Counted from the first letter of the stretch, positions 3,985-40,548 are shown. The stretch is DNA of 52,221 bases from Deltaproteobacteria bacterium (GCA_002747805.1 PDQP01000050.1:1-52221); one strand, 5' to 3'. Numbers and translations are program-made. The notes: generated from the letters alone by a model not told the origin.

Positions 3985-5709
3985 TCAGATACCGGCTTTA
4001 AGATTTTCGGGAAATCTGCCGGAAACCGCAAAGTCATTAACCACATTTTGATGAATTTGCAGGGCCGCATCCACTATTTGCCTGAGGTGAGAGGTTGCAT
4101 CGGCGGATAAATCCTGAAAGCTGCCGCCATAGCCGACGAAGTTAGCCGAATCATTATTCATAACCCATTGGATTTTAATCAATACTTCGGTAAGCATTTT
4201 CAGATCATAGCCATTTTCATCCACAGAAGCTATATTCAGCCGATCACCAGGCTCAATCTGAATATCTTCATGTTCATTTTTCATAATCACAAAGCCAAGC
4301 CCGGATTCCGACAGGTTCACCACTCCAGCCGGCATGGAAACTCCCATACCGGACACGCTAAGAACCAGTCTGGGCCCGGTCTTCATGGTAAAGTAAATCC
4401 GCTGATGCCGCCTCTTTTGAATAAATTCCGAGGCAACCCTTCTCACCTTGCCGCCATCGGACAAGACCGTGCAATCAAGCCCAAGATGGCTGCTGACGGT
4501 CTGCACAATCTCGGTCGGCGAGGCCTCGGTATCAGCAAGGCCGTCCTGTTCCACCTTTTCAATATCATCACTTACCATACAGGTTGAAGGCTGCTTGATG
4601 ATAATCCTGCCGGACTTGCCCTTGAAATATCTCAGTGCCTCAAGGGAACATGCAGCACCGGACAGCATGGTCAGGGCAAACTTGCCGGTAAAAATATCGG
4701 CAACCGAACAAATAAGGGCATCTATACCGGATTCATCCGCCGCCGAAGGCATCCCCGAATTAATCAGGAAGAAATTACCCTCATTTTCCGCCAGCTGATC
4801 AACCATGCCGGGCGTACCAATATAGCTGTAACCAGCGAGCAGAGGAACTTCGGAAGAAGCAGGCAGCACCGGAATACGGCAAATCTGGTTGATATAAACC
4901 ACCAAGGGCAAAACAAGGGCCTCCGGCATCTCCTGAACCACCAGCACCGTGCCGTCAAAGCCGCCCGGAAATCTGGTAAAAACATTAAACAGCTCGGCAA
5001 TACCGCCGGCACCGGACAAGACCAGCAATAACTGACCACAGGGGATATTGTGTCCAGCCGGTTTCACTTGAGTTGCCATACTGTATGACGGGGCGTTTAA
5101 TCTGGTAAATTCGCCAATCCTCGCCCTGGCTGCCTTATGTATGGTCTTGATAAACCTGTGCTGAACCTCGTCTTCCTTATGCTCACGGGTGGGTTTGACC
5201 AGAAAATCCACCGCACCAAAGCGGAGAAAATCGATAATGGTATTTTGGGAACGGTTACTAAGGTTGCTGACAATAATCACCGGACATGGATGACTGAGCA
5301 TCAGATGCTTTAATACCGAGGTGCCGCCCATGCCGGGCATATTGACATCAAGAGTGATAACATCCGGTTTTACCTCCCTCGTCTTCTGCAGGGCCTCATC
5401 GCCGTCAGCCGCCTCGCCAACCACCTCCAGGGTGCCGTCCGACTCAATCATCTTCTTGATAATACGCCTGAAAAGTTTTGAGTCATCGACTATCAAAACC
5501 CGTTTTCTGCGGTCTGGATCATCCTCACATCCGGCCTCCAGCAGCCGGTTCTTGATGGCGACATCCGAGCTGATAATATCATCCGGCTTTTCCTTGGAAA
5601 TGGTGATCATAAAACCGCATTCCCGGCAGTTAAAGCTCTGAAACTTATCTTTTATATTGACCAGATCCACATCGTAGCGGGAACCGCAGTCTTCACAAAA
5701 AACAATCAT
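3985..5709 (-). CDS. Four-domain signalling protein: zinc ribbon, REC, degenerate CheB-like methylesterase domain and PilZ
   Basis: N-terminal CxxC...CxxC ribbon (MIVFCEDCGSRYDV...FNCRECGF). REC domain (RVLIVDDSKLFRR...PDVITLDVNMPGMGG...VKP). CheB-like domain in which LSGAGG, QEMP and SGAACS replace GASTGG, QHMP and GMGNDG. C-terminal PilZ with intact RRHQR and NLSESG motifs. Confidence 0.8.
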   Translation of the reverse strand: MIVFCEDCGSRYDVDLVNIKDKFQSFNCRECGFMITISKEKPDDIISSDVAIKNRLLEAGCEDDPDRRKRVLIVDDSKLFRRIIKKMIESDGTLEVVGEAADGDEALQKTREVKPDVITLDVNMPGMGGTSVLKHLMLSHPCPVIIVSNLSNRSQNTIIDFLRFGAVDFLVKPTREHKEDEVQHRFIKTIHKAARARIGEFTRLNAPSYSMATQVKPAGHNIPCGQLLLVLSGAGGIAELFNVFTRFPGGFDGTVLVVQEMPEALVLPLVVYINQICRIPVLPASSEVPLLAGYSYIGTPGMVDQLAENEGNFFLINSGMPSAADESGIDALICSVADIFTGKFALTMLSGAACSLEALRYFKGKSGRIIIKQPSTCMVSDDIEKVEQDGLADTEASPTEIVQTVSSHLGLDCTVLSDGGKVRRVASEFIQKRRHQRIYFTMKTGPRLVLSVSGMGVSMPAGVVNLSESGLGFVIMKNEHEDIQIEPGDRLNIASVDENGYDLKMLTEVLIKIQWVMNNDSANFVGYGGSFQDLSADATSHLRQIVDAALQIHQNVVNDFAVSGRFPENLKAGI

Positions 5710-5783
5710 ATTATAAGCCTCCGCAGGCGGGCCATGGTTATTTATGATGGTTCAAACCGCTGAAAAACAAGGCGGCAAAAATT

Positions 5784-6203
5784 TTATTTGTCCTGGGCAG
5801 AATATCTTACCTGCTTGAGATATGATTTCAGGGCCTTGTAATCATCTTCAAAAATATCCAGAAATTTGGCTCCTATTTTCATCCGCCCTTCACTTTCACT
5901 AACCCAGGCGACCTCAACGATTGCCGTCAGGGGTGCGGCGACACGTTGATCATCAACCAGCATGGATACCCCCTTGCGGTGATGCTGCCAGCCGGAAATA
6001 TCCACAGAAATACAGAGATGATCACCTTTTTTATAGTCGCCCGCCAGACAAAAGCAGATGCCGTCCTCACTCAGGTTCTCCAAGGCGGCCTTCTCGCCGG
6101 GCCCGGCGGCCATCGGATAGGCAAGACGCTTAACCGAGAGTTCTCCGCCCTTTTTTATCCTTACCTTTTCCCGCAGTTTTCTGTCCTCTGCCTTGTCTGA
6201 CAT
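5784..6203 (-). CDS. Stand-alone PilZ-domain protein
   Basis: 139 aa with the RxxxR motif (REKVR) and the D/NxSxxG motif (NLSEDG) at PilZ-typical spacing. Confidence 0.7.
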   Translation of the reverse strand: MSDKAEDRKLREKVRIKKGGELSVKRLAYPMAAGPGEKAALENLSEDGICFCLAGDYKKGDHLCISVDISGWQHHRKGVSMLVDDQRVAAPLTAIVEVAWVSESEGRMKIGAKFLDIFEDDYKALKSYLKQVRYSAQDK

Positions 6204-6220
6204 AAATAATTTACCGATTT

Positions 6221-7252
6221 TTATTTCAGGATGGTATCAATACCCTTAATCCCCGTCAAGGATGCCTTTTTAGCAAAGCTGTCATCAACCAGCCCCTCTA
6301 CCCTTTCATCATCAACCAGACCAAATTGTTTCATCACCTTTGCCATATACTGAAATTCCTCATCCAGCGGCACATACTTGTCAAAAACAATCCGGTTTTC
6401 ATTGGGGCTGGTCAGGGCATATTCAACCAGATCCGCCGGTTGATTCCAATAGGAAGCGGCTATTGCCGCCGCCTCCGGCAGATTCTTTTTTGCCCACATG
6501 CCCGAACGCACCGCCCCTGCAACCAGCTTTTCCACCTGCTCCGGGTGCTGCTCGATAAAGTCTTGCCTGACCAGCATCAGATTGCAGATAAAGCCGGGCC
6601 ACACATCCTCGGCATAGGTAAACACAGTGGAATCGCCGTTTTGCAAGGTCTTGGCCGCAAAAGGCTCGCCGACATAATAGGCATCAAGCGCCCCGGATGA
6701 CAAGGCGGCCGGCATATCGGGCGGATTCATCTCCACCACCTTCAATCTGCCGCCGAGACCGTATTTCTCGGCCAGCAGTCTAACGCTCAAATTATGGCCG
6801 GAATACCGCATCGGCACCGCCACCGTCAGCCCGGCCAAATCTTCCATTTTCTCGGCCTTTAGCTCCTTGCGGACAACAAAGGTGCTTTCATGCCGATTGC
6901 CGATATAGACCACCTTGACATCCTCACCCTGCTGCCGCAGCACAATAGCCAAGGGGGCAATGATAAAGGCCGCCTCAATATTGCCGTTGCGCAGGGCCTC
7001 GCCCATCTCGGCAAAGGAAGCAAATTTAACCGCAGAAAAACGAAGGCCCTCCCCTTCCCTGGATGCATAATCCAAAAGCGGGGCGGCCAGATTGGTGATA
7101 ACCGGCATATAGCCCATATGCACTACCTCACGGCCGCCGGAATCGAAATTGACCCGGTAGTGCAGAAAACTGATAAAAACAAACCAGCCCGCCAGAATAA
7201 CCCCAACCAGTACACTTCTCGGCACACGTGCCAGATAATTATTAAACGGCAT
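6221..7252 (-). CDS. ABC transporter substrate-binding protein, NitT/TauT (NMT1-like) family, membrane-anchored
   Basis: The body matches the SsuA/NrtA/NMT1-like fold (GYMPVITNLAAPL..., AAFIIAPLAIVL). Start trimmed to M34 (MPFNNYLARVPRSVLVGVILAGWFVFISF, a TM anchor). The longer track ORF would run through the upstream ATPase gene. Confidence 0.75.
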   Translation of the reverse strand: MPFNNYLARVPRSVLVGVILAGWFVFISFLHYRVNFDSGGREVVHMGYMPVITNLAAPLLDYASREGEGLRFSAVKFASFAEMGEALRNGNIEAAFIIAPLAIVLRQQGEDVKVVYIGNRHESTFVVRKELKAEKMEDLAGLTVAVPMRYSGHNLSVRLLAEKYGLGGRLKVVEMNPPDMPAALSSGALDAYYVGEPFAAKTLQNGDSTVFTYAEDVWPGFICNLMLVRQDFIEQHPEQVEKLVAGAVRSGMWAKKNLPEAAAIAASYWNQPADLVEYALTSPNENRIVFDKYVPLDEEFQYMAKVMKQFGLVDDERVEGLVDDSFAKKASLTGIKGIDTILK

Positions 7253-8033
7253 CGGGAACCCCCAGCATAAAAAACACCTCTTTCCGCAGTTTAAGCAGCT
7301 CCGGCTCCTCGGTAATATGCCGCGGATGAGGATGCACCAGTTTATGGTCAAGCTGCACCGCCGCCGGTCTGCCGCTTAAAATCACAATGCGGTCTCCCAT
7401 CACCAGGGCATCATCAATATCATGGGTTACAAAAATAACGCTTTTACCAGTGTATAAGTGCATCATCACCACTTCTTCCCGCATCCTCATATGGGTCAGG
7501 AAGTCAAGGCCGGTAAAAGGCTCGTCCATAAACAGGGTGCGGGGATCAACCGCCAGGGCTCTGGCCAGCTCCACCCGCCGCTGCATCCCGCCGGAAAGCT
7601 CGTATGGATAACGCTGACCGGCTCCAGTCAGCTCCACCATATCGATATATTCCTGAATCTTGTTATTTCTTTCCTCTTCGTCCTTGATATTCCTAAGTCC
7701 CAGGCCGACATTTTGCTGAACCGTCATCCAGGGCAGCAAGGCACTATGCTGATAGACAAAGATATGATCGGAACTGGGGCCTCTCATGGGTTTTCCGTCC
7801 ACCAGCACCTCTCCGGCCGTAGCCTGCTCAAAACCGGCAATAATCCTGAGCAGGGTCGATTTGCCGCAGCCGGACGGGCCGAGGATGCAGACCATCTCCC
7901 CTTCTTCAAACTCAAGATTGATGTCTTCCAGAATCCGCAGCCTCTTGCCGGGACTGCTGCTTTCAAGTTCTCTCGATTTGCGTCTTTTTTCAGTGTACTC
8001 CTTGCACAAACCGGAAATAACAATATGACTCAT
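7242..8033 (-). CDS. ABC transporter ATP-binding protein (NitT/TauT family)
   Basis: Walker A GPSGCGKST, signature LSGGMQRR, Walker B LFMDEPF and H-loop VTHD. Confidence 0.9.
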   Translation of the reverse strand: MSHIVISGLCKEYTEKRRKSRELESSSPGKRLRILEDINLEFEEGEMVCILGPSGCGKSTLLRIIAGFEQATAGEVLVDGKPMRGPSSDHIFVYQHSALLPWMTVQQNVGLGLRNIKDEEERNNKIQEYIDMVELTGAGQRYPYELSGGMQRRVELARALAVDPRTLFMDEPFTGLDFLTHMRMREEVVMMHLYTGKSVIFVTHDIDDALVMGDRIVILSGRPAAVQLDHKLVHPHPRHITEEPELLKLRKEVFFMLGVPDAV

Positions 8034-8119
8034 GGCAATAATCTCCGTCCGGCAATTACGGCAGCACCCAAAAGTACACCAAGACCAACTTTTTTCAAGC
8101 TACTAAACATATTATTCAT
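8030..8119 (-). CDS. Possible 29-aa hydrophobic micro-protein between the permease and ATPase genes
   Basis: ATG...TGA ORF encoding MNNMFSSLKKVGLGVLLGAAVIAGRRLLP. Its TGA overlaps the ATPase ATG (ATGA), consistent with translational coupling. It has one predicted TM span. No convincing SD sequence was seen. Confidence 0.25.
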   Translation of the reverse strand: MNNMFSSLKKVGLGVLLGAAVIAGRRLLP

Positions 8120-8170
8120 AAATAAAAATATCAACTTAAATCCCAAATCCCCAATCCCCAAAGGACCACC

Positions 8171-8947
8171 CTAACGGGACAGATTCGCCCAGGAAACCGA
8201 ATCACTTTTTCCCAGCCATTTCATTACCATATCAAGGCCGAGACCAGTCAGGCCAATCACCACCATACCGGCCATCACATAATCCATCCTCAAGGCATTA
8301 CGTGAATCCAGAATCAGGTAGCCAAGGCCGGAATCAACCGCAATCATCTCGGCCGCCACCACCACCAGCCAGGCAATGCCCAGGGTAATCCGCAGGGCAG
8401 TAAGCACCGAGGGCAGCATGGCCGGAACAATAATCCGGTTGACAATCTCCCAGGTGGTCAGCCCGAAATTGGCCGCAACCTGAAAGTAGGTCGGCTTGAT
8501 TGATTTAACCGCAAGGGTGGTAGAGACCACCAGCGGAAAAAAACTTGACAGGAAAATAAGAAAAACGGCAGGCATATCACCAATGCCGAACCAGAGCATC
8601 GCCAAAGGAATCCAGGCCAGGGGAGAAATGGGCCGCATAAACTGGATAATCGGGTTAAAGGCATCCATCAGGTTCTGACTGCGGCCAAAGAGCATCCCCA
8701 GGGGAACCGCAAACAGGATGGCAAGATAAAAACCGGCCGTTACCCTGAACAGACTGGCTATGGTATGCTTAATCATGGAGCCGTTTAAGGTTAGTTCCCA
8801 AATACTGGCAACCACTCTTAAAGGCCCGGGGAAGACCTGGCTGCTCCAGCCGCCGAAAGCACTAGCCAGAAACCAGACCAGGGTAACACCGCAAAAAGTA
8901 ACGAAAGGTAAAAAAAAACTTCTCGGCAATATTTTCATGGCAAACAA
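8171..8947 (-). CDS. ABC transporter permease (NitT/TauT family)
   Basis: 258 aa with about six hydrophobic spans and a BPD-transport core similar to TauC/SsuC (AAEMIAVDSGLGYLILDSRN). Confidence 0.85.
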   Translation of the reverse strand: MFAMKILPRSFFLPFVTFCGVTLVWFLASAFGGWSSQVFPGPLRVVASIWELTLNGSMIKHTIASLFRVTAGFYLAILFAVPLGMLFGRSQNLMDAFNPIIQFMRPISPLAWIPLAMLWFGIGDMPAVFLIFLSSFFPLVVSTTLAVKSIKPTYFQVAANFGLTTWEIVNRIIVPAMLPSVLTALRITLGIAWLVVVAAEMIAVDSGLGYLILDSRNALRMDYVMAGMVVIGLTGLGLDMVMKWLGKSDSVSWANLSR

Positions 8948-8982
8948 ACTACAAATTGATAAAAAATTACTTCATACCCCTG

Positions 8983-9942
8983 CTAATTACTGCCTGCAGG
9001 TAAAAGCCTGACAATCTCCTTAGCCAGCTCCACATGCTGCAAACCGGCCATACTTTTGCGGTCATAGGCGATAGCCGGCAGGGAAACAATCTGGGATTCC
9101 TTGATCTTGCTGTCATCGGCAATGATGGTGTCAAGCATCCTGTCGCCATATAGTTCCCGCAGCTTGGTATAAATGAGCTTGGATGCGACCTCTTCCTTTC
9201 TATACATGGTAATCAGCACCCGGAAAACCAGATCCGGATTGATCTTGCCGTGCATCAGGTTAATCAGCTTCTGAATCTTTTTCACCCCGTCAGCGGCCAG
9301 AAACTCACAAGGACAGGGGATAATCGCCATTCTGGAAGCGGTCAGGGCATTCAAGGTAAAAAATTCAATGGCCGGCGGCGTATCAATCAGGATATAATCA
9401 AACTCATCCTTCAATAAATTCAGCCTGTCCCGCAAGAGAAACTCAAAAAACCTTTTCCCGAAATGTCTCTTGTTCAAAAGGGACATATTCACATTTGACG
9501 GCAGGATAAATAAACCGGCATAACGGGTTGGAATGATATAATCGCCGAAACTATCCGCACCAGAATCAACCATTTCAAAAAAAGAATTACGGTTGCGGTA
9601 GCCAAGGGCAAGACTGAGGTTGGCCTGAGCATCAAAGTCAATCAGCAGCACCTTTTTCTTCAGCAAAACCAGGGATAAACCAAGATTAAGACAGGTGGTA
9701 GTCTTGGCCACCCCGCCCTTCTGATTGGTTACGGTAATCACCGTTTGCCTAGGCAACTGCTGCAGGGCAAGCTCCCGGTCAAAAAAATTCAGGCCGCCCT
9801 TTTCCTCACCCGCCTTAACCAGCTCAACCTTACCCTTGCACTGCTTGCAACGAAGCCGGTCAAGATTTTCCGGAACCTTGCCGCTCTTTAATTTGTGCCG
9901 CTTACCGCACCCTGTGCATACAATGAACATTTTTTTCCCCAT
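8983..9942 (-). CDS. ParA/MinD-family ATPase with an N-terminal four-Cys zinc ribbon
   Basis: CTGCGKRHKL...LRCKQCKGK ribbon followed by the deviant Walker A (TNQKGGVAKTTT) and LLIDFDAQANLS. The start may instead be the ATG at 9930 (MFIVC...), which has a GGGGA RBS. Confidence 0.8.
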   Translation of the reverse strand: MGKKMFIVCTGCGKRHKLKSGKVPENLDRLRCKQCKGKVELVKAGEEKGGLNFFDRELALQQLPRQTVITVTNQKGGVAKTTTCLNLGLSLVLLKKKVLLIDFDAQANLSLALGYRNRNSFFEMVDSGADSFGDYIIPTRYAGLFILPSNVNMSLLNKRHFGKRFFEFLLRDRLNLLKDEFDYILIDTPPAIEFFTLNALTASRMAIIPCPCEFLAADGVKKIQKLINLMHGKINPDLVFRVLITMYRKEEVASKLIYTKLRELYGDRMLDTIIADDSKIKESQIVSLPAIAYDRKSMAGLQHVELAKEIVRLLPAGSN

Positions 9943-9967
9943 CTAACTAAATTTTTCGTCAGCCAGC

Positions 9968-11068
9968 CTACGCCATGTGCAGATGTCCCCGAACGGTCTC
10001 CAATATAGCACCAGGTATGGCATGATCATTAACCACCCGATCCACCACCTGCTGCTGAATGGCATTTTCGGTAAGATTGGGAAAGACACAATAATGATTG
10101 TCATGGGCCATGGTAACACCGCCGTATTCACGGATATTAGCCAGCCCCATTGCCCCGTCATCGCCGATACCGCCAAGCAGCACCCCGGCAATAAACCCGT
10201 CAAAGGACTCGGCCGCTGAATTATAAAGCATGTCAATGGGCTTATCTACCGCTTCACCCACCATAACCGCATATTTTTCATCGCCGATATGATCAAGGAC
10301 CAGGGAATTTTCATTGGAACCTATATAGCAAACCCCCGGCTCAATAATGGTGTCTTCCTGCAGGGCCTTGATTCTCCAGGAGACAAACTTGTCAAACTCC
10401 TCGACAAAGGAAGGCAGAATCTTATTGGAAATTGACTGAATAACAATGATGCTGGTCTGCGGCATCCGCATCATATGGGCCATTGTCCGAATAACCGTAT
10501 TCGGCCCGCACAGGTTAGTCCCCATCAGCACCAAGGCCTCGGGAGCCGCCCCGCCGCCTGCCGCCCCCGCCTCATCCGCCGCAAAAATCGGCAGCTTGGC
10601 CCGGCGGATATTATCCACATTGACCGAGGCCGCCATCTTGACCCGTTCGATGATTCTCTCCCGCCCTTCATTCAAATCCCGGGAAACTGCACCGGAAGGC
10701 TTAGGCACAAAATCAACCACGCCAAGCCTCAAGGCCTCAAAGGTAACCGCCCCGTCAGTAAACAAGGAGCTTAATACCACAATGGGAATCTGACACTTGA
10801 TCATCACATGCCTGGTGGTGCTAATACCGTTCATCACCGGCATATCCATATCCAGGGTAATCACGTCCGGTTTTAGCTCTTTTGCCTTTTCCAAGCCGAG
10901 CAAGCCATTTTTCGCATCGCCGACCACCTCAATCATGGGGTCGGAATTCAATATATCGGATACGGCCCGGCGCATCACGCCTGCATCATCTACGACCAGA
11001 ACTCTAATTTTATCTTCCATGCTCAACCTGCTCAACCAAGTGGTTAGATTTTCAAGGTGATAAATCAC
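9968..11068 (-). CDS. REC plus degenerate CheB-like methylesterase-domain protein
   Basis: REC domain (IRVLVVDDAGVMRR...DVITLDMDMPVMNG...VPKP). CheB-like domain in which GTNLCG and IQSIS replace GASTGG and TQHMP, while GIGDDG is retained. GTG start at 11068, with an alternative ATG at 11020 (MEDKIRVLVVDD). Confidence 0.8.
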   Translation of the reverse strand: MIYHLENLTTWLSRLSMEDKIRVLVVDDAGVMRRAVSDILNSDPMIEVVGDAKNGLLGLEKAKELKPDVITLDMDMPVMNGISTTRHVMIKCQIPIVVLSSLFTDGAVTFEALRLGVVDFVPKPSGAVSRDLNEGRERIIERVKMAASVNVDNIRRAKLPIFAADEAGAAGGGAAPEALVLMGTNLCGPNTVIRTMAHMMRMPQTSIIVIQSISNKILPSFVEEFDKFVSWRIKALQEDTIIEPGVCYIGSNENSLVLDHIGDEKYAVMVGEAVDKPIDMLYNSAAESFDGFIAGVLLGGIGDDGAMGLANIREYGGVTMAHDNHYCVFPNLTENAIQQQVVDRVVNDHAIPGAILETVRGHLHMA

Positions 11069-11073
11069 CAGAC

Positions 11074-12522
11074 CTAGGCCGGATCGCTCACCATTTTCGC
11101 CTCCGCCCGCTCAACAATAATCCTGACCAGTTCAGAACCAAGGCTGCTGTCGGGGGCAACCAAAGCATCCGGGCATTTTTCCAGGGCCGATTCCGCCATT
11201 TCCTTAACCAGACAGGTTTCCGGCTGCTGGATCAGGAGACCAGCTCGGCTATGCTGCAGTTCGTTCATGCCGTCAGTGCCGTCAGTAGAGGCCCCCGACA
11301 AAACTACGCCCATGCAGTCCGCCCCCATCACTTCCGCCATGGAAATCATCAGCATATCGCCTGCACCGCGGCGGTCAGGAAAGGATGAAGGAGTAAGATG
11401 AAGACTATAACCATCTCCGCCCTTCTCAATCTTGGCATACTCAAGACCGGAAACCAGATAACATACTCCCCCCTCCAGAGGCATGCCGTCCGTTGCCCTT
11501 TTAACCGGAATCTGGCTATGTGAACCGATATAGCTGACAAAGGCATCCACATGCTCAGGATCGGCATAAAGCACCACCATAAAGGCGGCCCCAAGACCAG
11601 CAGGTATCTGGGGGATAACCTTCAGCAAGGTACCGTATCCTCCCTCGGCGGCCACCATACAGACCGCAAAATCCATGGGCCTGCCGCCTTCATCACCCTG
11701 CTGATCCAGCTTTTCAGTCCGAATATAGCGTACAGAATTGATGGACACATCGGCCGCCAACTGCACCTTCTTACGGATGAGCTGTTTTTGTTTTTCCTTG
11801 TCCTCCCCGCTCAGGCTGGAAGGCTTGGGGATAAAGTCAACCGCCCCGTATTTCAGGGTATCAAAGGTAATGGTCGCCCCCTCATGGGTCATGGCACTGA
11901 CCATGACCGTGGGAATCGGAAAGCGGATCATAATCCTCTTCAAGGCGGCCACCCCATCCATCACCGGCATATTGATATCCATGGTGATCACATCGGGATG
12001 CACCTTGGGAATAAGCTCCAGGGCCTCCTCGCCATCGGCGGCGTTGCCGACTATAATAAACTCCTCCTCGCCGAAAATCGAGGCCAGGGCCTTGCGCATC
12101 ATGGACGAATCATCAACTACCAGCACCCTGATCCGCCGATCTCTTTCCTTAAGTCCGGTCTCCTGGGCAGCATCGCCTGATCCGGCGGCCGTCTCGCCCT
12201 CATCCTGTTTACGGCAGGCCTCCATGATCAGATGCTGCCAGTTCAGGGTGATGGTTTTTTTATCCGGTTTTTCCCCCATTCGGAATTCAAAACTGCCCTG
12301 ATTCCAGCCCATGATGGTATAAAAGGCATCCTCGCCGACCACATCGCCCACCTCGGCATGAACAATCTCGCCTTCAACCAGATAAACCTTGCCGTTCCTG
12401 CTGCCCTTGCTGACCACAATGGCCGCCGTGGTGCCGCCGATACAGCTCATCTGCAGTATATCGGGAAGCTGAACGCTTAAGGTGCCAATAAATCCGCTAT
12501 CTTTTCCTTCAGAGTTACTCAT
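11074..12522 (-). CDS. PATAN (DUF4388), REC and degenerate CheB-like domain protein
   Basis: N-terminus LSVQLPDILQMSCIGGTTAAIVV...GKVYLVEGEIVHAEVGDVVGEDAFYTIMGWNQGSFEF matches the DUF4388/PATAN pattern. It is followed by REC (IRVLVVDDSSMMRK...DVITMDINMPVMDG...IPKP). The CheB-like domain has AAEGGY and VLYAD in place of GASTGG and TQHMP. The start overlaps the cheA stop by 8 nt. Confidence 0.8.
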   Translation of the reverse strand: MSNSEGKDSGFIGTLSVQLPDILQMSCIGGTTAAIVVSKGSRNGKVYLVEGEIVHAEVGDVVGEDAFYTIMGWNQGSFEFRMGEKPDKKTITLNWQHLIMEACRKQDEGETAAGSGDAAQETGLKERDRRIRVLVVDDSSMMRKALASIFGEEEFIIVGNAADGEEALELIPKVHPDVITMDINMPVMDGVAALKRIMIRFPIPTVMVSAMTHEGATITFDTLKYGAVDFIPKPSSLSGEDKEKQKQLIRKKVQLAADVSINSVRYIRTEKLDQQGDEGGRPMDFAVCMVAAEGGYGTLLKVIPQIPAGLGAAFMVVLYADPEHVDAFVSYIGSHSQIPVKRATDGMPLEGGVCYLVSGLEYAKIEKGGDGYSLHLTPSSFPDRRGAGDMLMISMAEVMGADCMGVVLSGASTDGTDGMNELQHSRAGLLIQQPETCLVKEMAESALEKCPDALVAPDSSLGSELVRIIVERAEAKMVSDPA

Positions 12523-15500
12523 TTTCAGTCATCGGTAAAAGTTCGCCAATTTTCAGATTCTGTCTGCCAATGGTCAAATTGACCAGTTCGTGAATATCAA
12601 GGATCAGCGATATCCGGCCGTCTCCAAGGATGGTTGCACCGGAAAATCCTTTATTATCACGAAGATAATCGGGAAGCGGCTTAATAACCACCTCTTCCTG
12701 ACCACGCAGGTCATCAACCACCAGACCCACCCGGCCGCTGCCGGAACTGACAATCACCACAAAAGGTCTTTCATTTTCAGCCGCCCGGGCAGAAGAGGCA
12801 AGATTAAAGACACCGGACAGGCGGATCAGCGGAATGGCACTATCACGCAGGTAAATAACCTCATTGCCCTTGATACTGTTAATTTCCCCCTTACGCACCC
12901 GCAGGGTTTCATCAACGGCAATCAATGGAATGGTGAACAAGGCACCGCCCACATTAACCAGCAGGGCCTTAATTACGGCCAGAGTAAGCGGAATCTTGAT
13001 TCTGAAACGGGTGCCTTCGCCGGGGCTGGAATCAATCTCCAGGGTACCGTTAAGGTTTTCCAGATTTTTCCTGACCACATCCATACCCACCCCGCGGCCG
13101 GAAGTACGGGTAATCTTGGCAGCGGTGGAAAAGCCAGGCCGCATAATCAGCTCGATAATCTCCTTATAGCTCATCCGGGCAAGCTGGTCGGGTGTAACCA
13201 GATTCTTCTCAAGGGCAATGGCCTTAATCACCTCCGGCTCAAGCCCCTTACCGTCATCCTCCACCTCGATAACCACATGGCTGCCCTCATGGTAGGCATC
13301 AAGTTTCAAAAGCCCCCGTTCATTCTTGCCCAGTCTCTGACGTTCAGCCACCGTCTCGATACCATGATCCACCGCATTTCTGATCACATGGACAAGCGGA
13401 TCGGCAATTTCCTCAATAATCATCTTATCCAGTTCGGTATCTGCACCCATGATTTCAAGGCGTACATCCTTATCAGTGCCATGTACCAGATCCCTAATCA
13501 GCCTCGGATAGCGGTTAAAAAGCTGGGAGATGGGCAGCATCCGCACCTTCATCACACTTTCCTGCAAATCGTTTGCCACCCGGCCAAGGGCAACGATTGC
13601 CTCGTTGAGTTTGAAGGAAAAGCCCCTGACCTCCTTAAAATATTTTTTGTTGATGGACGGATTATGCTGGAGCTGGGCCTCAAGCCGTCTCATCTCATTA
13701 TACAGCTGGGAAAACCAGGCCCGGTTGATGACCAGCTCTCCGGCCTGGTTAAGCAGTTCGTCAATCTTGGCAGCATCAATACGCAGGCTCTGCCTTAAAA
13801 CCTTTTCGCGGTCGGAAATATCAGCAGCCTGTTTGCTGCCGGACTTACGCATCTCTTCACGGCGTTTTTCCACCCTTTTCTCAAGGTCGGTTTTGGCGGC
13901 GGCTGCACTTTTTTCATCCTCAGCGGCCCCGTCCTCGGCAGGCGGTTTGGGCTGCTTACTCTCTCCGGCATCAGCGGTCTTGACCTCAGTTTCGACAGGC
14001 GGTTTGACTTCCCTGTCAGCAGTCTTGCTCTTTGTCTCAGCAGGCGGCTTAACTTCCTGAACAGCGGCCTTGGCCTCGGCAGGCGGCTTAACTTCCGCCT
14101 CCTTCTGCTTGGTCTCATCAACCGCCGCAGCCAACACAGGCTCCTGAATAGCAGGTTCCTGAATAGCCGGTTCAGACGGCAGCTCAAGATCAAGCGGCTG
14201 CACTTCATCATCCGGCAAAGACGGCGTTTTGCCGCCAATGCCCAAGGCACTGTCAAGGGCCGAACTCAGGCGGTCAACCACCGCACCTTCATCCGCCGCC
14301 AGGCCGTCTGCCAAATCATCCGCCAGCGGATCATAAAAATCACCGCTGTCATCACCCAAGTCATCGTAGGACAAAAGCTCATCCATCCGATCCTTTAAGG
14401 TCTCCTCTCCTGCTCCGCCGTCAAGTTCAGGCTCACCCATCAGTTCAAGCTCACTCGGCAAGGCTGACGGCTTTTCAGCGGCCATAATTTCACTTTCATC
14501 CGCAGTCTCACCGCCCACAGTCTCTGCCGGTTCAACGCTGACCGCTTCCTCCGCCTCATCATCAGTTTTTTCGGCGAGAGGAGGAAAAATTTCAGTTATT
14601 TTAGAGAGATACTTCTTTACACATTCGCCCAGATGCTCAAAACAGTCATCTTTAAGACCATCCTTAACCCCGTCTTCAATATCCTTTAGCCATTCATCAT
14701 AGATATCCGTCAGCTTCTCATAGCCCATATAATTGGCAGCGGCCCTCATCCTGACCACCAATTCACGGATTTCGGCAACGCCTTCGGAAGGGTCTTCCGC
14801 CCCGTCAAACTTTACACCGACCGCCTCAATCTTGGCAAAATTCTCCCTGATCTGCTCAAGAAAAATTACAAATAACTCGGTATCATTCTGCTCATCATAA
14901 TCGCCATGATCCTGCTCAACAGCAACATCATCACTGACCGACAGGCGTTCTACACCCTCAAGTTTTTCAAAACTCTTCATAATGGCGTCAAAATAAATAT
15001 TGACCCCGTTTTCCAGAATCTCCTCAAGAGCAGGTGCCTCGTTTAGAAAAAACCGTTCCTGATAGCCCTCCAGCTTTCTTTGCCAGCCGTCATAAAAGGT
15101 TCCCAGTTTTTCATAGCCCATATAATTGGCCGAGGCCTGCAACTCATGGATTCTTTCATTGATCAGCTCAATCTGGGAGGAGCGGTTTTCAGAGGCCGGA
15201 ATCTGCAGGGCAATATCCCGAATTTCCAGCAGATTACTCTTTAGCTGCTCAATGAAAATGGTATATAACTCTTCGTCCTCCTCTTCCTGGGCATAGACCT
15301 CACCGATTTCCACCGTATCGCTTTCCCAGGACTCATCATGGTCAACCGGAGATATATCGCCAATCGGCGACAGTTCTTCATCCACCGGGGCCTCGTCCGT
15401 TCCATCCCAATCGGATTCGGCGGCAATACCGCCATGCTCGTCAAGGTCGAAAGATAATTCATCCTCATCATCCGGGGCCTGAGCCGCACCCGGGCTTATC

Positions 15501-16495
15501 TCATCCTGATCAAAGTTAAGCCCTTCGTCATCATCATCGGGAAACATCTCCTCAAGACCAAGGGTCAGTTCATCTCCGGCCGCATTCCGGCTGGCCCCTT
15601 CCGCCTCATATTCGACTTCTGCCTTGGCTGCAATATCATCATGTTCATCAAAAACCTGCTCGTCGGCAGCAGCCTCTTCATCGGGCAGCATCTCATCCAG
15701 CCCAAGGGTAAGCTCCTCCCCGGCATCGTCAGACAAAGCTGGTTCATCAACCTGATCATCGGCAGCCTCAGGTTTATCATCAAGAGCATCAGGTTCAGCA
15801 GCGGCTAACTGTTCATCAGGCTCATCCTGAACAACGGATTCCTCTTCAAGCTCGGCTGCCAGCCGCTTAACCGCCTCATCAGCGGTATCTTCATCGGCAA
15901 ACAGCTCATCCACACCCAGCTCCAGATCATCGGCCTCTGCTCCGGCTGCATCAACGCCGTCAGCCGCCGGAGCATCACTTAGGTCAACCACATCATCAAG
16001 GGTCAGATCGACCTGATCCACCTCATCATCGGCAAAGGCCTGTTCTTCAATCTCCGGCTTAGCCTCTTCGGCATCAGCCTTTTTATCCTGCTCAAAATAA
16101 CTGAGAATATCGGCCAGAATATCTTCGGTATCGGTTAATTCCTCGTGGTTTTTCGCCACATCATCAATCAGCAGGGCCATCCGGTCCTTGCCGCTGATCA
16201 GGGTATCAATCAGGGCCGAATTTACCTCCAGCTCCCCCTGCCGCACTGCTTCCAGCAGGTTTTCCAGCTTATGGGCAAGCTCGCTGGTTACTTTCAGGCC
16301 CAAGTAGGCCGAGGAACCCTTAATGGTATGGGCATCTCTAAAGATGTCATCAATTATTTCCCTGTTTTCCGGCTCTTCCTCAAGTCTGATCAGGTTCGCT
16401 TCCATTTCGTCCAGGTGTTCACCAGCTTCGGCGATAAACTCTGGAAGCAGTTCCATATCAATCATTTTAAGCTCCTCGCTAAAAGGGAAATCCAT
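12515..16495 (-). CDS. cheA: Chemotaxis histidine kinase CheA, 1326 aa, with extra HPt-like modules and long acidic/proline-rich linkers
   Basis: P1 HPt (FRDAHTIKGSSAYLG), a dimerisation region, an HATPase domain (N box IRNAVDHG, G1 DDGKG, G2 GRGVGMD) and a C-terminal CheW-like P5 domain. About 800 aa of additional sequence lie between P1 and P3. Confidence 0.9.
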   Translation of the reverse strand: MDFPFSEELKMIDMELLPEFIAEAGEHLDEMEANLIRLEEEPENREIIDDIFRDAHTIKGSSAYLGLKVTSELAHKLENLLEAVRQGELEVNSALIDTLISGKDRMALLIDDVAKNHEELTDTEDILADILSYFEQDKKADAEEAKPEIEEQAFADDEVDQVDLTLDDVVDLSDAPAADGVDAAGAEADDLELGVDELFADEDTADEAVKRLAAELEEESVVQDEPDEQLAAAEPDALDDKPEAADDQVDEPALSDDAGEELTLGLDEMLPDEEAAADEQVFDEHDDIAAKAEVEYEAEGASRNAAGDELTLGLEEMFPDDDDEGLNFDQDEISPGAAQAPDDEDELSFDLDEHGGIAAESDWDGTDEAPVDEELSPIGDISPVDHDESWESDTVEIGEVYAQEEEDEELYTIFIEQLKSNLLEIRDIALQIPASENRSSQIELINERIHELQASANYMGYEKLGTFYDGWQRKLEGYQERFFLNEAPALEEILENGVNIYFDAIMKSFEKLEGVERLSVSDDVAVEQDHGDYDEQNDTELFVIFLEQIRENFAKIEAVGVKFDGAEDPSEGVAEIRELVVRMRAAANYMGYEKLTDIYDEWLKDIEDGVKDGLKDDCFEHLGECVKKYLSKITEIFPPLAEKTDDEAEEAVSVEPAETVGGETADESEIMAAEKPSALPSELELMGEPELDGGAGEETLKDRMDELLSYDDLGDDSGDFYDPLADDLADGLAADEGAVVDRLSSALDSALGIGGKTPSLPDDEVQPLDLELPSEPAIQEPAIQEPVLAAAVDETKQKEAEVKPPAEAKAAVQEVKPPAETKSKTADREVKPPVETEVKTADAGESKQPKPPAEDGAAEDEKSAAAAKTDLEKRVEKRREEMRKSGSKQAADISDREKVLRQSLRIDAAKIDELLNQAGELVINRAWFSQLYNEMRRLEAQLQHNPSINKKYFKEVRGFSFKLNEAIVALGRVANDLQESVMKVRMLPISQLFNRYPRLIRDLVHGTDKDVRLEIMGADTELDKMIIEEIADPLVHVIRNAVDHGIETVAERQRLGKNERGLLKLDAYHEGSHVVIEVEDDGKGLEPEVIKAIALEKNLVTPDQLARMSYKEIIELIMRPGFSTAAKITRTSGRGVGMDVVRKNLENLNGTLEIDSSPGEGTRFRIKIPLTLAVIKALLVNVGGALFTIPLIAVDETLRVRKGEINSIKGNEVIYLRDSAIPLIRLSGVFNLASSARAAENERPFVVIVSSGSGRVGLVVDDLRGQEEVVIKPLPDYLRDNKGFSGATILGDGRISLILDIHELVNLTIGRQNLKIGELLPMTENE

Positions 16496-17243: not shown

Positions 17244-17588
17244 CTAAATAAGTTCCAGCAGCTGATCAAGATTATGCTTGTTGACAAAACCCAAGGCACC
17301 GACCTCAGCCGCCCGGCCGCTGTACTGCTCCTTATCCAGATTTGAAAAGAAGACAATCCTGGCCCCGGAATCAAGGGTCATAATTTCCCTTGCCGCCGAA
17401 AATCCATCCATATCACGCATGGTTACATCCATAATAACCAGTTCCGGCCGATGCTGGTCATACATATCGATAGCCTCGCGGCCGTTTCTTGCCTCGGCGG
17501 CAATCTGGTATCCCTTCTTTTCCAGCAGATTACGAACCATTTTACGCATGATTGATGAATCATCAACTATCATTATCTGTTTGCTCAT
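17244..17588 (-). CDS. cheY: Single-domain response regulator CheY
   Basis: 114 aa with IMIVDDSSIMRK, the phospho-acceptor context LVIMDVTM and a conserved K in FVNKH. Confidence 0.9.
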   Translation of the reverse strand: MSKQIMIVDDSSIMRKMVRNLLEKKGYQIAAEARNGREAIDMYDQHRPELVIMDVTMRDMDGFSAAREIMTLDSGARIVFFSNLDKEQYSGRAAEVGALGFVNKHNLDQLLELI

Positions 17589-17634: not shown

Positions 17635-18138
17635 CTACTCAGCCATTGCCTTCAGGTGCTTAATCTCGTCTGTGTGCAGAATACGGCCAAAGTTAAGCAG
17701 AATCAAAAGACGCTCATCAATCTCACACACTCCGTCTATATATTGACTTTCAAGACCGGCGGTAACAATTTCCGGCGGCGGTTCAATGGTTTTGGTAAGA
17801 ATTTTCAAGACCTTGGTTACTGAATCAACCCGAAAGCCGGTAATCCGGCCTTCAATTTCAAGGATCAGGATCCAGACCTTCTCCTCATCCTCTTCCGCCT
17901 TTTTCTGCAGCAGGTTCAGCCTCTTACGCAGATCGATAACCGGAATAATATTACCGCGCAGGTTAATCACCCCTTCCACAAAGGCAGGAGAATTGGGAAT
18001 GGAGGTAATGGCCGCATCACGGATAATTTCCCTGACCTTTAGAATTTCCACTCCGAACAGTTCCGTTCCGATGGAAAAACCAACCAGCTGCATGGAATCT
18101 TCAATGACAGTTTTCTGACCTGTACTCGTAACGTCCAT
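17635..18138 (-). CDS. cheW: Chemotaxis coupling protein CheW
   Basis: 167 aa with QLVGFSIGTELFGVEILKVREI...VINLRGNIIPVIDLRKRL, typical of the CheW fold. Confidence 0.9.
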   Translation of the reverse strand: MDVTSTGQKTVIEDSMQLVGFSIGTELFGVEILKVREIIRDAAITSIPNSPAFVEGVINLRGNIIPVIDLRKRLNLLQKKAEEDEEKVWILILEIEGRITGFRVDSVTKVLKILTKTIEPPPEIVTAGLESQYIDGVCEIDERLLILLNFGRILHTDEIKHLKAMAE

Positions 18139-18237: not shown

Positions 18238-20826
18238 CTAGGCACCGGCCTCGATCTTAAACTTACGAACCTCATCGGCAAGTTCAGTCGAGAGCTTTCT
18301 CATGTTCTCGGAAATGTTAATAACCTCACCGGCTCCGTTATAGGTGTTTTCCGCCTGAGCTGCACCTTCCTCGGTGGCGGCCACAACCCGCTTGGAACGT
18401 CCGGCCTGAGCGGCAGTCAGCTGGTCAATAGATTCTGAACGGGAAACAACCTCACGCATATCACCATCAGCTTCCTGGGCCAGGCGGTTAGAGTTTTCCA
18501 CCAGTTTATCGATGTTTTCAACCTGCTGAACCAGACGGCCAAGGGCCTCTTCCGCAGCAGCCCGTCTGGCACCCTGCTGACCGGCCATATTCATAATCTC
18601 GGATGAAAAGGCGTTTACTTCGGCCATAATGTTCTGCACTGACTTGGAACTTTCAGACAGGGAGTCTGCAACTCTGGTAATATCTTCAATAGCCTGAATG
18701 TTACCCTGACCACCCTGGGAGATTTTCTCCAGAGCAAGCTGGGACTGATTAGACAGCTTGGTACCGTCCTCAACCCTCTTGGTTGAGTCCTTAATCAGCT
18801 TGGTAATCTCGTTGGCCGCATCCGCAGAACGCTGGGCCAGCTTACCAACCTCGTCTGCAACCACAGCAAAACCCTTACCGTGTTCACCGGCACGGGCGGC
18901 CTCAATGGCGGCGTTCAGGGCCAGCAGGTTGGTCTGTTCGGTAATTTCGGTAATAACCGAGATGATCTCTGAAATCTGTTCGGATGATTCGGCAATGGCC
19001 TGCATACCTTGCACGGTGGCGTTTACCGTATCACGACCCTCTTGTGCGGCCTGCAGCACTTCCTGACCCTGCTCGCGGGAGCTTTTGGCTGCCTCGGCCA
19101 GCAGATTAACCGCTTCCCGCATGGCATCCACAGCGGCGGTGGCTTCCTGCACCGATTCTCCCTGCTTGGTTGCGGTAGCCACAACCTTACCACCAGTCTC
19201 ACCCATATCGGAAACCCTGGCGATAACCGTGTTAGCTTCCTCTTTCTGCGAACCTGTAGCATCCGCCACCTGCTCCATGGAGCTAACCAGTTCCTGAAGT
19301 CTGGCACCGGAGTCGGTAGCTTCCTGCTTCTGGGCGGCGGCGTTGCTGGCAACCTCACCGGCAGTCTTACCCATTTCGGAAATCAGACCCTGCATTTCCT
19401 GCATCATGGCAAGGTTCTTCTCGGCACGATCTCGGTTGGCCTGGGCACGCTGGGCCACGTTACCGGCACTGCTTTCAACCGCAATTGATGAACTATTAAC
19501 CAGGGTAAAGGAACGCCTTAGCTCCTGAATCAGCTCGTTAACGGCGGCGGCCATATCACCGACCTCGTCCTTACTTTCAACCGCCACGTTCTGGGTAAAG
19601 TCACGATTAGCAGCAACCCTTTGCACCGTACGGGCAATCCTTACAATCGGGTTAGCAACGGTACGGGCAGTAAACAGCCAAATAAAAATTGCCGCCACCA
19701 GAATAACCAGGGTAATAACCAGCACCGTGGTCATAGCCTGATTCTGAAACTCAGCAATACGGATGGAGGAGGCCAGAATATCTTCCTCGTAGGCACCAGC
19801 CGAAATAACCAGGTGCCAGGGAGCAAAATAGGCAAAGTGTACGGTTTTCTTTTTGGCTACCGGGTCGCCCGGGTTTTGCCACATATAGGTTTGAGAACCA
19901 AACTCGCCCTCTCTTAGTGACTTGGCCGCCTCAATCCTTTCCTTAACGATCAGGGTTCCAGTCTCAACGTCCTTGATGTTAGAAATATCCTCACCATCAC
20001 GCTTACCATTTCTTGAAACAAGATAAACACCCTTTTCATCAAGAACGGTAATATAACCAGATTTACCAATGGTAACATCATATAATGACTGCCGGATGTC
20101 CTTATCAATCTCGATCAGTTCACCGACATAGATGGCACCGATAACCTGACGATTGCTATCAAAAATAGGAGCATATACGTTTTGGTATAATCGGCCAACC
20201 ACCTCACTCATACCCCGGAAGGTATCTCCTCTTAATACCGTGGAAATTACCGGATTTTCCTTACCATCCGGCTTGGTGCGGGGGATATAGGTGCCGACCG
20301 CCCGGCTACCGTCCGCCTTACGGATAGTGGTGGCCACCCGCAGCATATCACCGGCATCATTCATCCTTTGAAAGATGGTAACATCAATCCCGCTGTTAAT
20401 CCTTTTAACCTCATCAACAATATTCAGGCCGGATTCACCGCCCGCCTGAGTCTGACCAAACCAGAGGGAAGGCAGGCTGACCGGTACCGTGGAACCGGTA
20501 AACTGGTTAACCGCATTCCAGCGGACATTTTCGCCAGTCAGATCCAGGCTAACACTGCCCTCACGGCCAATAAAGTCCTTGGCATGTTCCATTGCTGTAT
20601 TAAGTTCTCTGACAACAACATCATACTCAAACTTGATGGTCTCATAGGAAGTCTTAACAATCCGGTCAACTGAACGGTATGCAATTTTGGACGTGTCATC
20701 ACGAGCATGCTCCTGCACCTGCAAACCGGAGAAATAGTTAACAACTGAAACAACGATCAAGGGGACAATGGTAAGAAGAATACCGATTGTCAGCAATTTT
20801 GGTACCAGCCTAAGATTCTTTAGCAT
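18238..20826 (-). CDS. Methyl-accepting chemotaxis protein with a large Cache-type periplasmic sensor and HAMP
   Basis: 862 aa. TM1 is followed by a periplasmic region of about 340 aa with Cache-like motifs, then TM2, HAMP and the signalling hairpin tip [34 protein letters not shown]. Confidence 0.9.
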
Positions 20827-40034: not shown

Positions 40035-40548
40035 TCCTAAGATTTGAGCAAAACCCCAAAAAAATATTTTTTGGTTTTATCCATACTTGTCTAGATGCCC
40101 GTAGTTGCGTTCGTAGTTGCGATAATTGCCTTTATATTTTAAGTATTATCAAGATAAATACAGTAAATTTTATTAAATTTTATTTTTTTTAAGTTTAATT
40201 AAATGATTAAACTGTGAAAAAACAGCCGGGCGGCCAGCCTATTATCCCATTATACCGAATAAATTGACAAGGTTTATCAAGACCACATCAAGACAAGGAT
40301 TTACAAGGCGGTAAGAGAGAAAAACCAAGAAATAACAAGCAATTATCATTGTGGAAATATTGGAAAGGCCGTTTATAGAAAGTTTCTGCAAACGGACTTT
40401 GACCAAAGATGGAAATTGGATTTTATCAGCGTGCGTGCTGGGGGGTGCGTTTCGGCCCCGGCGGCCTACTTTTCAAGTGAATCACTTATGATGATGAAAA
40501 AAATAAAAAATAAAAAATAAAATTCCAACTCCATATTAGGAAGCTTTG
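40035..40548. other. Candidate replication origin (oriC) upstream of dnaA
   Basis: 514-bp non-coding region containing a strongly AT-rich block of about 85 bp (40131-40215). It has one near-consensus DnaA box, TTATCCATA, at 40077-40085. A repeated 9-mer, TTATCAAGA, occurs at 40146-40154 and 40274-40282. A direct repeat, GTAGTTGCG, occurs at 40101-40109 and 40113-40121. Confidence 0.45.

Follow-up and report, generated by a model that had tools for sequence, protein, structure and literature searches.

The stretch analysed here, referred to as the window, comprises 52,221 nucleotides from a Deltaproteobacteria bacterium (GCA_002747805.1, PDQP01000050.1:1-52221). Its genes from position 20826 down to 3985 form one operon-like cluster on the minus strand, in the order chemoreceptor, CheW, CheY, small HAMP protein, CheA, C, B, ParA-like ATPase, three ATP-binding cassette (ABC) transporter genes, PilZ and A. 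The subject of this work is the three proteins A, B and C, each of which combines a receiver (REC) domain with a domain resembling the chemotaxis methylesterase CheB, and which the original prediction, made by eye from the sequence alone, had proposed to be phosphorylatable pseudo-methylesterases that have lost the catalytic triad. All three exceed the Pfam gathering thresholds for Response_reg and CheB_methylest (PF01339, 24 bits), and their domains, including a PilZ domain in A (Pfam cut-off 22.5 bits), are located as follows.

11074..12522, minus strand: protein C, 482 amino acids (aa), with PATAN (DUF4388), REC and CheB-like domains
12199..12474, minus strand: PATAN/DUF4388 domain of C, aa 17-108 (PF14332, 72.7 bits)
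11815..12126, minus strand: receiver of C, aa 133-236 (Pfam, 83 bits)
11134..11664, minus strand: CheB-like domain of C, aa 287-463 (PF01339, 110.2 bits)
9968..11068, minus strand: protein B, with REC and CheB-like domains, maximal open reading frame (ORF) of 366 aa with a GTG start at 11068
10694..11002, minus strand: receiver of B, aa 23-125 in the 366-aa numbering (Pfam, 68.3 bits)
10004..10531, minus strand: CheB-like domain of B, aa 180-355 (PF01339, 98.3 bits)
3985..5709, minus strand: protein A, 574 aa, with zinc ribbon, REC, CheB-like and PilZ domains
5611..5709, minus strand: N-terminal zinc ribbon of A, aa 1-33, CxxC...CxxC (Zn_ribbon_4, 19.3 bits, under the cut-off; cysteines kept in the orthologues)
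5182..5499, minus strand: receiver of A, aa 71-176 (Pfam Response_reg, 86 bits; DD, TLDVNMP, S and KP)
4498..5022, minus strand: CheB-like domain of A, aa 230-404 (PF01339, 55.5 bits)
4072..4419, minus strand: C-terminal PilZ domain of A, aa 431-546 (Pfam PilZ, 26.1 bits; RRHQR and NLSESG motifs, mostly kept in A orthologues)

The ORF originally placed at 9968-11068 for B does exist, but its start is most likely the ATG at 11020 rather than the GTG at 11068, which would give a protein of 350 aa (9968..11020), the orthologues having 345-346 aa. At its 3' end cheA runs 8 nt into the start of gene C and, with PATAN immediately before REC in a gene adjoining cheA, C displays a PATAN-REC architecture in a che-like cluster.

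The identity of the CheB catalytic triad is documented (PMC3180692, PMC7698151), and the residues at the positions of Ser164, His190 and Asp286 of E. coli CheB were read in three ways: by phmmer pairwise alignment with the CheB proteins of Salmonella (1A2O) and P. atrosepticum (6YMZ), in a MAFFT alignment of 409 sequences for which E. coli CheB (NC_000913) was the anchor, and by comparing each family profile in hhalign with a canonical CheB profile of 53 members (probabilities of 99.5% for A and 100% for both B and C). The three methods gave an identical alignment register for A, B and C, with the following residues at the triad positions.

A: Gly233 at Ser164, Glu260 at His190, and Cys354 (hhalign, MAFFT) or Ser355 (phmmer) at Asp286
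B (366-aa ORF numbering): Asn185 at Ser164, Ser212 at His190, and Asp286 kept as Asp304
C: Ala292 at Ser164, Tyr319 at His190, and Asp286 kept as Asp414

An intact Ser164-His190-Asp286 triad is absent from all three proteins. The changes first read by eye in A (Ser to Gly, His to Glu and no Asp, the last under either placement) and in B (Ser to Asn and His to Ser, with Asp retained) were reproduced by phmmer, MAFFT and hhalign, as were the change of His to Tyr and the retention of Asp in C. However, the proposed change of Ser to Glu in C has to be corrected, as the Glu of its AAEGGY motif aligns with Thr165 and the Ser164 position is occupied by Ala. In the same scan, Ser-His-Asp (S-H-D) was found in 52 of 54 control CheBs from unrelated genomes, and the identity cluster holding E. 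coli CheB was uniformly S-H-D at both thresholds (53 and 55 members). Average-linkage clustering separated A, B and C from this canonical cluster and placed each in a clade of its own, in agreement with the distinct triad-less grouping that had been suggested for checking. With the NCBIfam CheB model NF001965, A, B and C scored 190.8, 232.3 and 228.6 bits, respectively, all under the cut-off of 293 bits, and some database entries are therefore named "response regulator" and others CheB.

The receivers of A, B and C, on the other hand, keep the DD pair, the phospho-acceptor Asp in T[LM]DxxMP, the Ser/Thr and the KP, so that the acidic pocket and phospho-acceptor context claimed for all three were borne out by the Pfam hits and by the residues read in the sequence. 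Structural modelling covered A and B, the CheB fold of C resting on its PF01339 score. The AlphaFold2 (AF2) model of B (predicted local distance difference test, pLDDT, 85.3; predicted template modelling score, pTM, 0.81) matched CheB 6YMZ and 1A2O in Foldseek with template modelling (TM) scores of 0.80-0.82, and that of A (pLDDT 73, the CheB-like region mostly 75-95) gave the same two structures as top matches with target TM scores of 0.82-0.86. Both models match full-length CheB, including the arrangement of the REC and CheB-like domains.

Each of the three proteins belongs to a conserved clade, in which the active-site loops have replacement motifs particular to that clade. The B family (120 members listed at 48% identity or more, ~345 aa) is found in Desulfobulbaceae, Desulfobacteraceae, Methylococcales and Ca. 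Contendobacter, and carries the motifs GT[TSN]L[SGTC]GPNT, VVQ[ED]I[SA]P and TG[IV]GDDG, its invariant positions clustering in the former active-site loops. Among the 120 listed homologues, the His190 position is never His and is Glu or Asp in 119, Asp286 is present in all, and the receiver has D, D, D, S and K without exception. The window B is an outlier in its own family, being the sole exception at the His190 position (Ser212, codon 10433-10435) and having an Asn three residues past Ser212 where most members have Pro. The C family shares the motif GA[ASG]EGGY, with the Glu and the Tyr each present in 116 of 120 members; the His190 position is filled by Tyr in 93 and by His in 26, and Asp286 is kept in 117. 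The A family includes ~14 close orthologues (42-59% identity) with SGAGG[IY], QxMP and SGAxxCSLExL, which have none of the three triad residues and keep the REC phospho-acceptor residues; its wider kin are larger PATAN-REC-CheB-like groups, likewise devoid of all three. A further related group consists of 412-aa proteins with GSSYGGYG and VLYAA. Since the members of each clade share one set of non-catalytic motifs, the loss of the triad is ancient and under selection, and pseudogene formation or decay was ruled out by this conservation and by the intact ORFs in dozens of genomes.

To place the conservation of the CheB-like domains on a scale, mean pairwise identities were compared with those of the receivers.

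B family: CheB-like 55%, REC 76%
C family: CheB-like 51%, REC 66%
A family: CheB-like 53%, REC 75%
Canonical CheB controls: CheB-like 41%, REC 48%

The ratio of CheB-like to REC conservation is thus 0.71-0.77 in the A, B and C families compared to 0.86 in canonical CheBs, which indicates that the CheB-like domains are under purifying selection, slightly weaker relative to REC than in the real enzymes. The CheB-like domains of A, B and C share 22-26% pairwise identity and are no nearer to one another than each is to E. coli CheB, their REC domains sharing 43-46%. Because of this divergence of the CheB-like domains, the three proteins are ancient paralogues, and a recent or local triplication was ruled out. 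In bit score, both B and C lie closer to canonical CheB than they do to one another, suggesting that the triad may have been lost separately in the two lineages. In a library of 1.84 billion representatives, ~8,800 resemble the CheB-like domain of B, and among these the B-like ones make up no more than about a dozen clusters at 50% identity. As 117 of the 144 alignable representatives nearest to this domain are S-H-D, the triad-less clades are minority offshoots of a well-known family.

The other genes of the cluster, all on the minus strand, are listed below in the order of the cluster.

18238..20826, minus strand: transmembrane chemoreceptor (methyl-accepting chemotaxis protein, MCP) with a periplasmic sensor region, HAMP and MCP signalling domain
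17635..18138, minus strand: CheW (Pfam, 123.8 bits)
17244..17588, minus strand: stand-alone CheY-like receiver, 114 aa, recognised in the translation, its position also kept in the orthologous loci L001-L003
16529..17182, minus strand: small membrane protein with HAMP (Pfam HAMP, 22.7 bits); the ORF reaches 17374 and the likely start is Met65
12515..16495, minus strand: CheA kinase, 1326 aa, with Hpt, dimerisation, HATPase and CheW domains (Pfam)
8983..9942, minus strand: ParA/MinD-like ATPase (Pfam AAA_31, 148.5 bits) with an N-terminal zinc ribbon (Zn_ribbon_4, 24.1 bits)
6221..8947, minus strand: ABC transporter genes inside the che cluster (NCBIfam)
8171-8947, minus strand: ABC permease
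7242-8033, minus strand: ABC ATPase
6221-7252, minus strand: membrane-anchored NMT1/SsuA-type binding protein
5784..6203, minus strand: stand-alone PilZ protein, 139 aa (Pfam PilZ, 28.3 bits; REKVR and NLSEDG motifs)

The D. rhabdoformis orthologue of the small HAMP membrane protein has 243 aa. A linker of ~765 aa in CheA is 30% Asp plus Glu in composition, and two extra Hpt-like segments, IHELQASANYMGYEKL and RMRAAANYMGYEKL, were noticed in it by eye, the second without His. They are reminiscent of the multi-Hpt CheAs known from the pilus and alternative-function classes, but a self-BLAST of CheA did not confirm extra Hpt-like repeats. The CxxC...CxxC zinc ribbon, a Zn_ribbon_4 match under its Pfam cut-off, begins both the ParA-like ATPase and A, and could be a common localisation or interaction handle.

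A scan of species-representative genomes provided 22 additional B-type loci with identities of 46-52% and another three with ~40%, as well as 55 canonical CheB control loci, and the neighbourhoods of these 25 orthologous and 55 control loci were compared in a tblastn matrix. The order MCP, CheW, CheY, CheA, REC-CheB-like, ABC permease, ABC ATPase, NMT1-type binding protein and PilZ is shared by the B loci of D. rhabdoformis and Ca. Contendobacter, and a cluster type with MCP, CheW, CheY, CheA, C, B, ParA-like, ABC transporter and PilZ genes is kept across Thermodesulfobacteriota and Gammaproteobacteria. Among its carriers with complete genomes are Ca. Electrothrix sp. YB6 (CP178758.1), Ca. Electronema halotolerans (OW818675.1) and Desulfobulbus rhabdoformis (GCA_016919065.1). 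In nearly all orthologous loci of these two phyla that have enough sequence, ABC genes of 50-76% identity are located immediately downstream of B or of the ParA gene, the latter following B directly in ~20 of the 25. In L001-L003 a PilZ gene comes after the ABC genes, and PilZ homologues were also detected in L004, L009, L019 and L024. Motif scans detected C-type and B-type genes together in at least 14 orthologous loci, and an A-like PATAN-REC-CheB-like gene directly upstream of B in some; no canonical GASTGG protein was detected by motif scan in any of the orthologous loci. Ca. Contendobacter has a 260-aa REC protein (REC only in Pfam) beside a separate C-type REC-CheB-like gene. Two Syntrophobacteraceae loci (L026 and L027), which have no ParA-like and ABC genes, each encode three different non-canonical CheB-like regulators, two of them with PATAN.

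A CheR homologue was found by tblastn within 10 kb in none of the 25 orthologous loci, compared to ~40 of the 55 canonical control loci. With an enteric-derived methylation consensus, which in E. coli Tar picks out the four known sites and no others, a single strict match was obtained in the cluster MCP, none in 13 of 20 MCPs of orthologous loci and at most two in the remainder; the receptors of this cluster type, the cluster MCP included, also have no C-terminal pentapeptide. Given the few or missing consensus matches and the absence of CheR from the cluster, there is no evident counterpart here of the target on which CheB canonically docks.

Taken together, the fold and the phospho-acceptor are kept, the triad is gone and the replacements are conserved clade-wide, all of which agrees with the proposal that the CheB fold was repurposed as a non-catalytic module. 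The methylesterase function has very probably been lost from A, B and C, so that they would neither demethylate nor deamidate receptors, and we consider it likely on balance that the three proteins act as non-catalytic output modules with a CheB fold, gated by phosphorylation, in a conserved chemosensory pathway that probably controls something other than flagella. In the mechanism that we propose, the cluster's CheA, the presumed phosphodonor, would most likely phosphorylate the receivers of A, B and C, and the regulatory logic of CheB itself would be reused: the unphosphorylated REC would pack over the CheB-like cleft and phosphorylation would free it, so that the exposed and remodelled cleft may bind a partner rather than hydrolyse a substrate. 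The receptor array, the ParA-like ATPase, the ABC transporter, and PilZ or pilus proteins are candidate partners. The add-on domains would route and integrate the signal, with PATAN on C pointing to the machinery of type IV pili or of polarity, the PilZ domain of A adding a putative cyclic di-GMP (c-di-GMP) input, and the zinc ribbon of A recurring in the cluster's ParA-like ATPase. The RxxxR and [DN]xSxxG motifs of PilZ bind c-di-GMP; both are present in the two PilZ domains of the cluster (stand-alone and fused to A), which suggests that c-di-GMP may feed into the pathway. In Synechocystis, response regulators with PATAN have been reported to interact with the motor of the type IV pilus (bioRxiv 10.1101/2021.06.11.447907).

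The closest known systems compare with A, B and C as follows. CheB of E. coli and Salmonella, a receptor glutamate methylesterase and glutamine deamidase (PF01339; PDB 1A2O, 1CHD, 6YMZ and 3SFT) resembles A, B and C in the REC-linker-C-domain architecture, in the fold (TM 0.80-0.86 for the A and B models), in the phospho-acceptor residues and in the proximity of the genes to cheA, cheW and mcp, whereas A, B and C differ in the triad that is not intact, the scores under the NCBIfam CheB cut-off, the lack of CheR in the cluster, the receptors without canonical methylation sites, and the extra PATAN, zinc-ribbon and PilZ domains. ChpB and WspF of the Pseudomonas Chp (type IV pilus) and Wsp systems are likewise REC-CheB proteins in non-flagellar chemosensory pathways; they are described as methylesterases that are active and have the methyltransferases PilK and WspC as partners, unlike A, B and C, which have neither a triad nor a methyltransferase nearby. 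C is similar to the PatA/PixG-type PATAN-REC proteins of cyanobacterial pilus-based taxis, with PATAN followed by REC in a che-like operon without CheR and true CheB, but the cyanobacterial proteins end after REC and C adds a conserved CheB-like domain. ParA-like ATPases are known from che clusters, such as Vibrio ParC and R. sphaeroides PpfA, which share with the present cluster a ParA/MinD-type ATPase inside a chemosensory operon; the window ATPase, for which a role in positioning arrays may be supposed, differs in its N-terminal zinc ribbon and in the ABC genes after it. A precedent for a degenerate domain is R. sphaeroides CheA3, in which an enzyme domain of a che pathway has been conserved and still functions after losing its catalytic residues (PMC10782961), although CheA3 belongs to a kinase family rather than an esterase family.

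A wider proposal, which we put forward as tentative and somewhat doubtful, is that of an undescribed pathway class in which two or three phosphorylation-gated pseudo-methylesterases took the place of methylation adaptation. Their three lineages look as if each arose on its own from catalytic CheB, and the pathway would be functionally tied to c-di-GMP/PilZ signalling as well as to the ABC transporter and the ParA-like ATPase. Such a class may be distributed over Thermodesulfobacteriota, cable bacteria included, and Gammaproteobacteria, for example tying solute transport or sensing to pilus motility or cell polarity.

Several observations weigh against a non-catalytic, methylation-free role. 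The nucleophile position is Ser or Thr in 100 of the 120 listed B-family members, and most members keep the combination Ser/Thr, Glu/Asp and Asp, making unconventional chemistry conceivable for the family. Some C-family members are S-H-D (2 of 118) or Ala-His-Asp (24). The consensus used for the methylation sites is derived from enteric receptors. Although no CheR-like gene was found anywhere in the 52-kb window, a CheR may lie elsewhere in the genome. A 4.8-kb Thermodesulfobacteriota contig (L028:792-4809) encodes a B-like protein, CheY, a REC-PATAN-REC-CheB-like protein (motifs GAALGGY, LYMP and GTDG), another CheY and a CheR homologue. With CheR next to B-like and C-like genes in this contig, a universal absence of CheR was dropped, and its absence from such clusters would be a strong tendency, not a rule.

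The best surviving alternative, which we regard as unlikely, is that A, B and C are, along the receptor-binding line of the original prediction, adaptation modules, in which the phosphorylated, catalytically dead CheB domains dock on the adaptation region of the receptor and tune the kinase by binding alone, providing feedback without methylation. The C-domain of CheB is a receptor-binding fold, whose arrangement with REC is kept in the predicted structures, the genes lie directly after cheA in an operon shared with MCP and CheW, and the cluster has no CheR, so that another adaptation mechanism would be needed; CheD of B. subtilis acts by binding receptors and offers an analogy. However, the scarcity of consensus methylation sites in MCPs examined with a pattern that finds all four in Tar, and the missing C-terminal pentapeptide, argue against such docking, three very different clefts are hard to square with a single receptor target, and the PATAN, PilZ and zinc-ribbon additions point to downstream outputs. 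Docking at receptor methylation sites was not adopted as the main explanation, the conserved Glu/Gln pairs being almost absent in the cluster MCPs.

A second alternative, in our view distinctly improbable, is that the proteins are still enzymes with a non-canonical site or another substrate, for instance with a Ser/Thr-Glu/Asp-Asp site in the B family or a Glu/Tyr site in the C family. The best-conserved segments of each family are indeed the former active-site loops: in the B family these hold the Asp, the acidic residue at the His position and the frequent Ser/Thr described above, and in the C family a Glu and a Tyr that hardly vary within the nucleophile loop. Other hydrolases are known with Ser-Glu-Asp triads. 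The nucleophile position, however, varies (Thr, Ser or Asn in B, Ala, Ser or Gly in C, and Gly in A), unlike a catalytic residue, and no methyltransferase is located nearby. With Asn/Ser/Asp in the window B and none of the three residues in A, unconventional catalysis appears less likely for these two proteins than for the B family at large.

It is very improbable that the CheB-like domains are vestigial and that the proteins act through their receivers only, as phosphate sinks or as carriers of PATAN and PilZ. Several receivers in one CheA pathway often serve as sinks, and REC is better conserved than the CheB-like domain in all three families; on the other side, the CheB-like domains are 50-55% identical across phyla with invariant family motifs, their conservation ratio is near that of real CheBs, the models are confident in this domain and a stand-alone CheY is already present in the cluster. 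An alignment artefact, with the catalytic residues present in a shifted register, might be suspected from the original alignment by eye and the divergence of A (PF01339, 55 bits), but is almost certainly not the explanation, given the agreement of three methods anchored on the GG after the nucleophile, the Q before and MP after His and the G-x-G before Asp, and the lack of any Ser, His or Asp within one residue of the expected positions able to restore the triad.

The literature searched contained no account of triad-less CheB clades, of PATAN-REC-CheB proteins or of a che cluster tied to an ABC transporter, nor of a CheB equivalent to the degeneracy of R. sphaeroides CheA3; the "CheB-like" proteins named in Nostoc and Pseudomonas papers were set aside as precedents, being ordinary CheB homologues. 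Automated annotation names such proteins "CheB" or "protein-glutamate methylesterase". With conserved clades that lack the triad, clusters that lack CheR and receptors that lack methylation sites, many genomes are consequently annotated with an adaptation system that they probably do not have. A non-catalytic, phosphorylation-gated role for A, B and C would provide a clear example of an enzyme fold that has become a module under phosphorylation control, here in three versions side by side that look long-diverged and were possibly derived separately. The conserved association with ABC transporter, ParA-like ATPase and PilZ genes across two phyla, cable bacteria and methanotrophs included, points to an unstudied signalling pathway, and its most intriguing feature is how consistently a chemosensory pathway is coupled here to an ABC transporter.

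Outside the cluster, a DnaA homologue with Bac_DnaA, DnaA_N and DnaA_C domains is encoded at 40546-41862 on the plus strand, and the cumulative GC skew of the window is minimal around 44-46 kb; because of these two features, the window may lie near the chromosomal replication origin.

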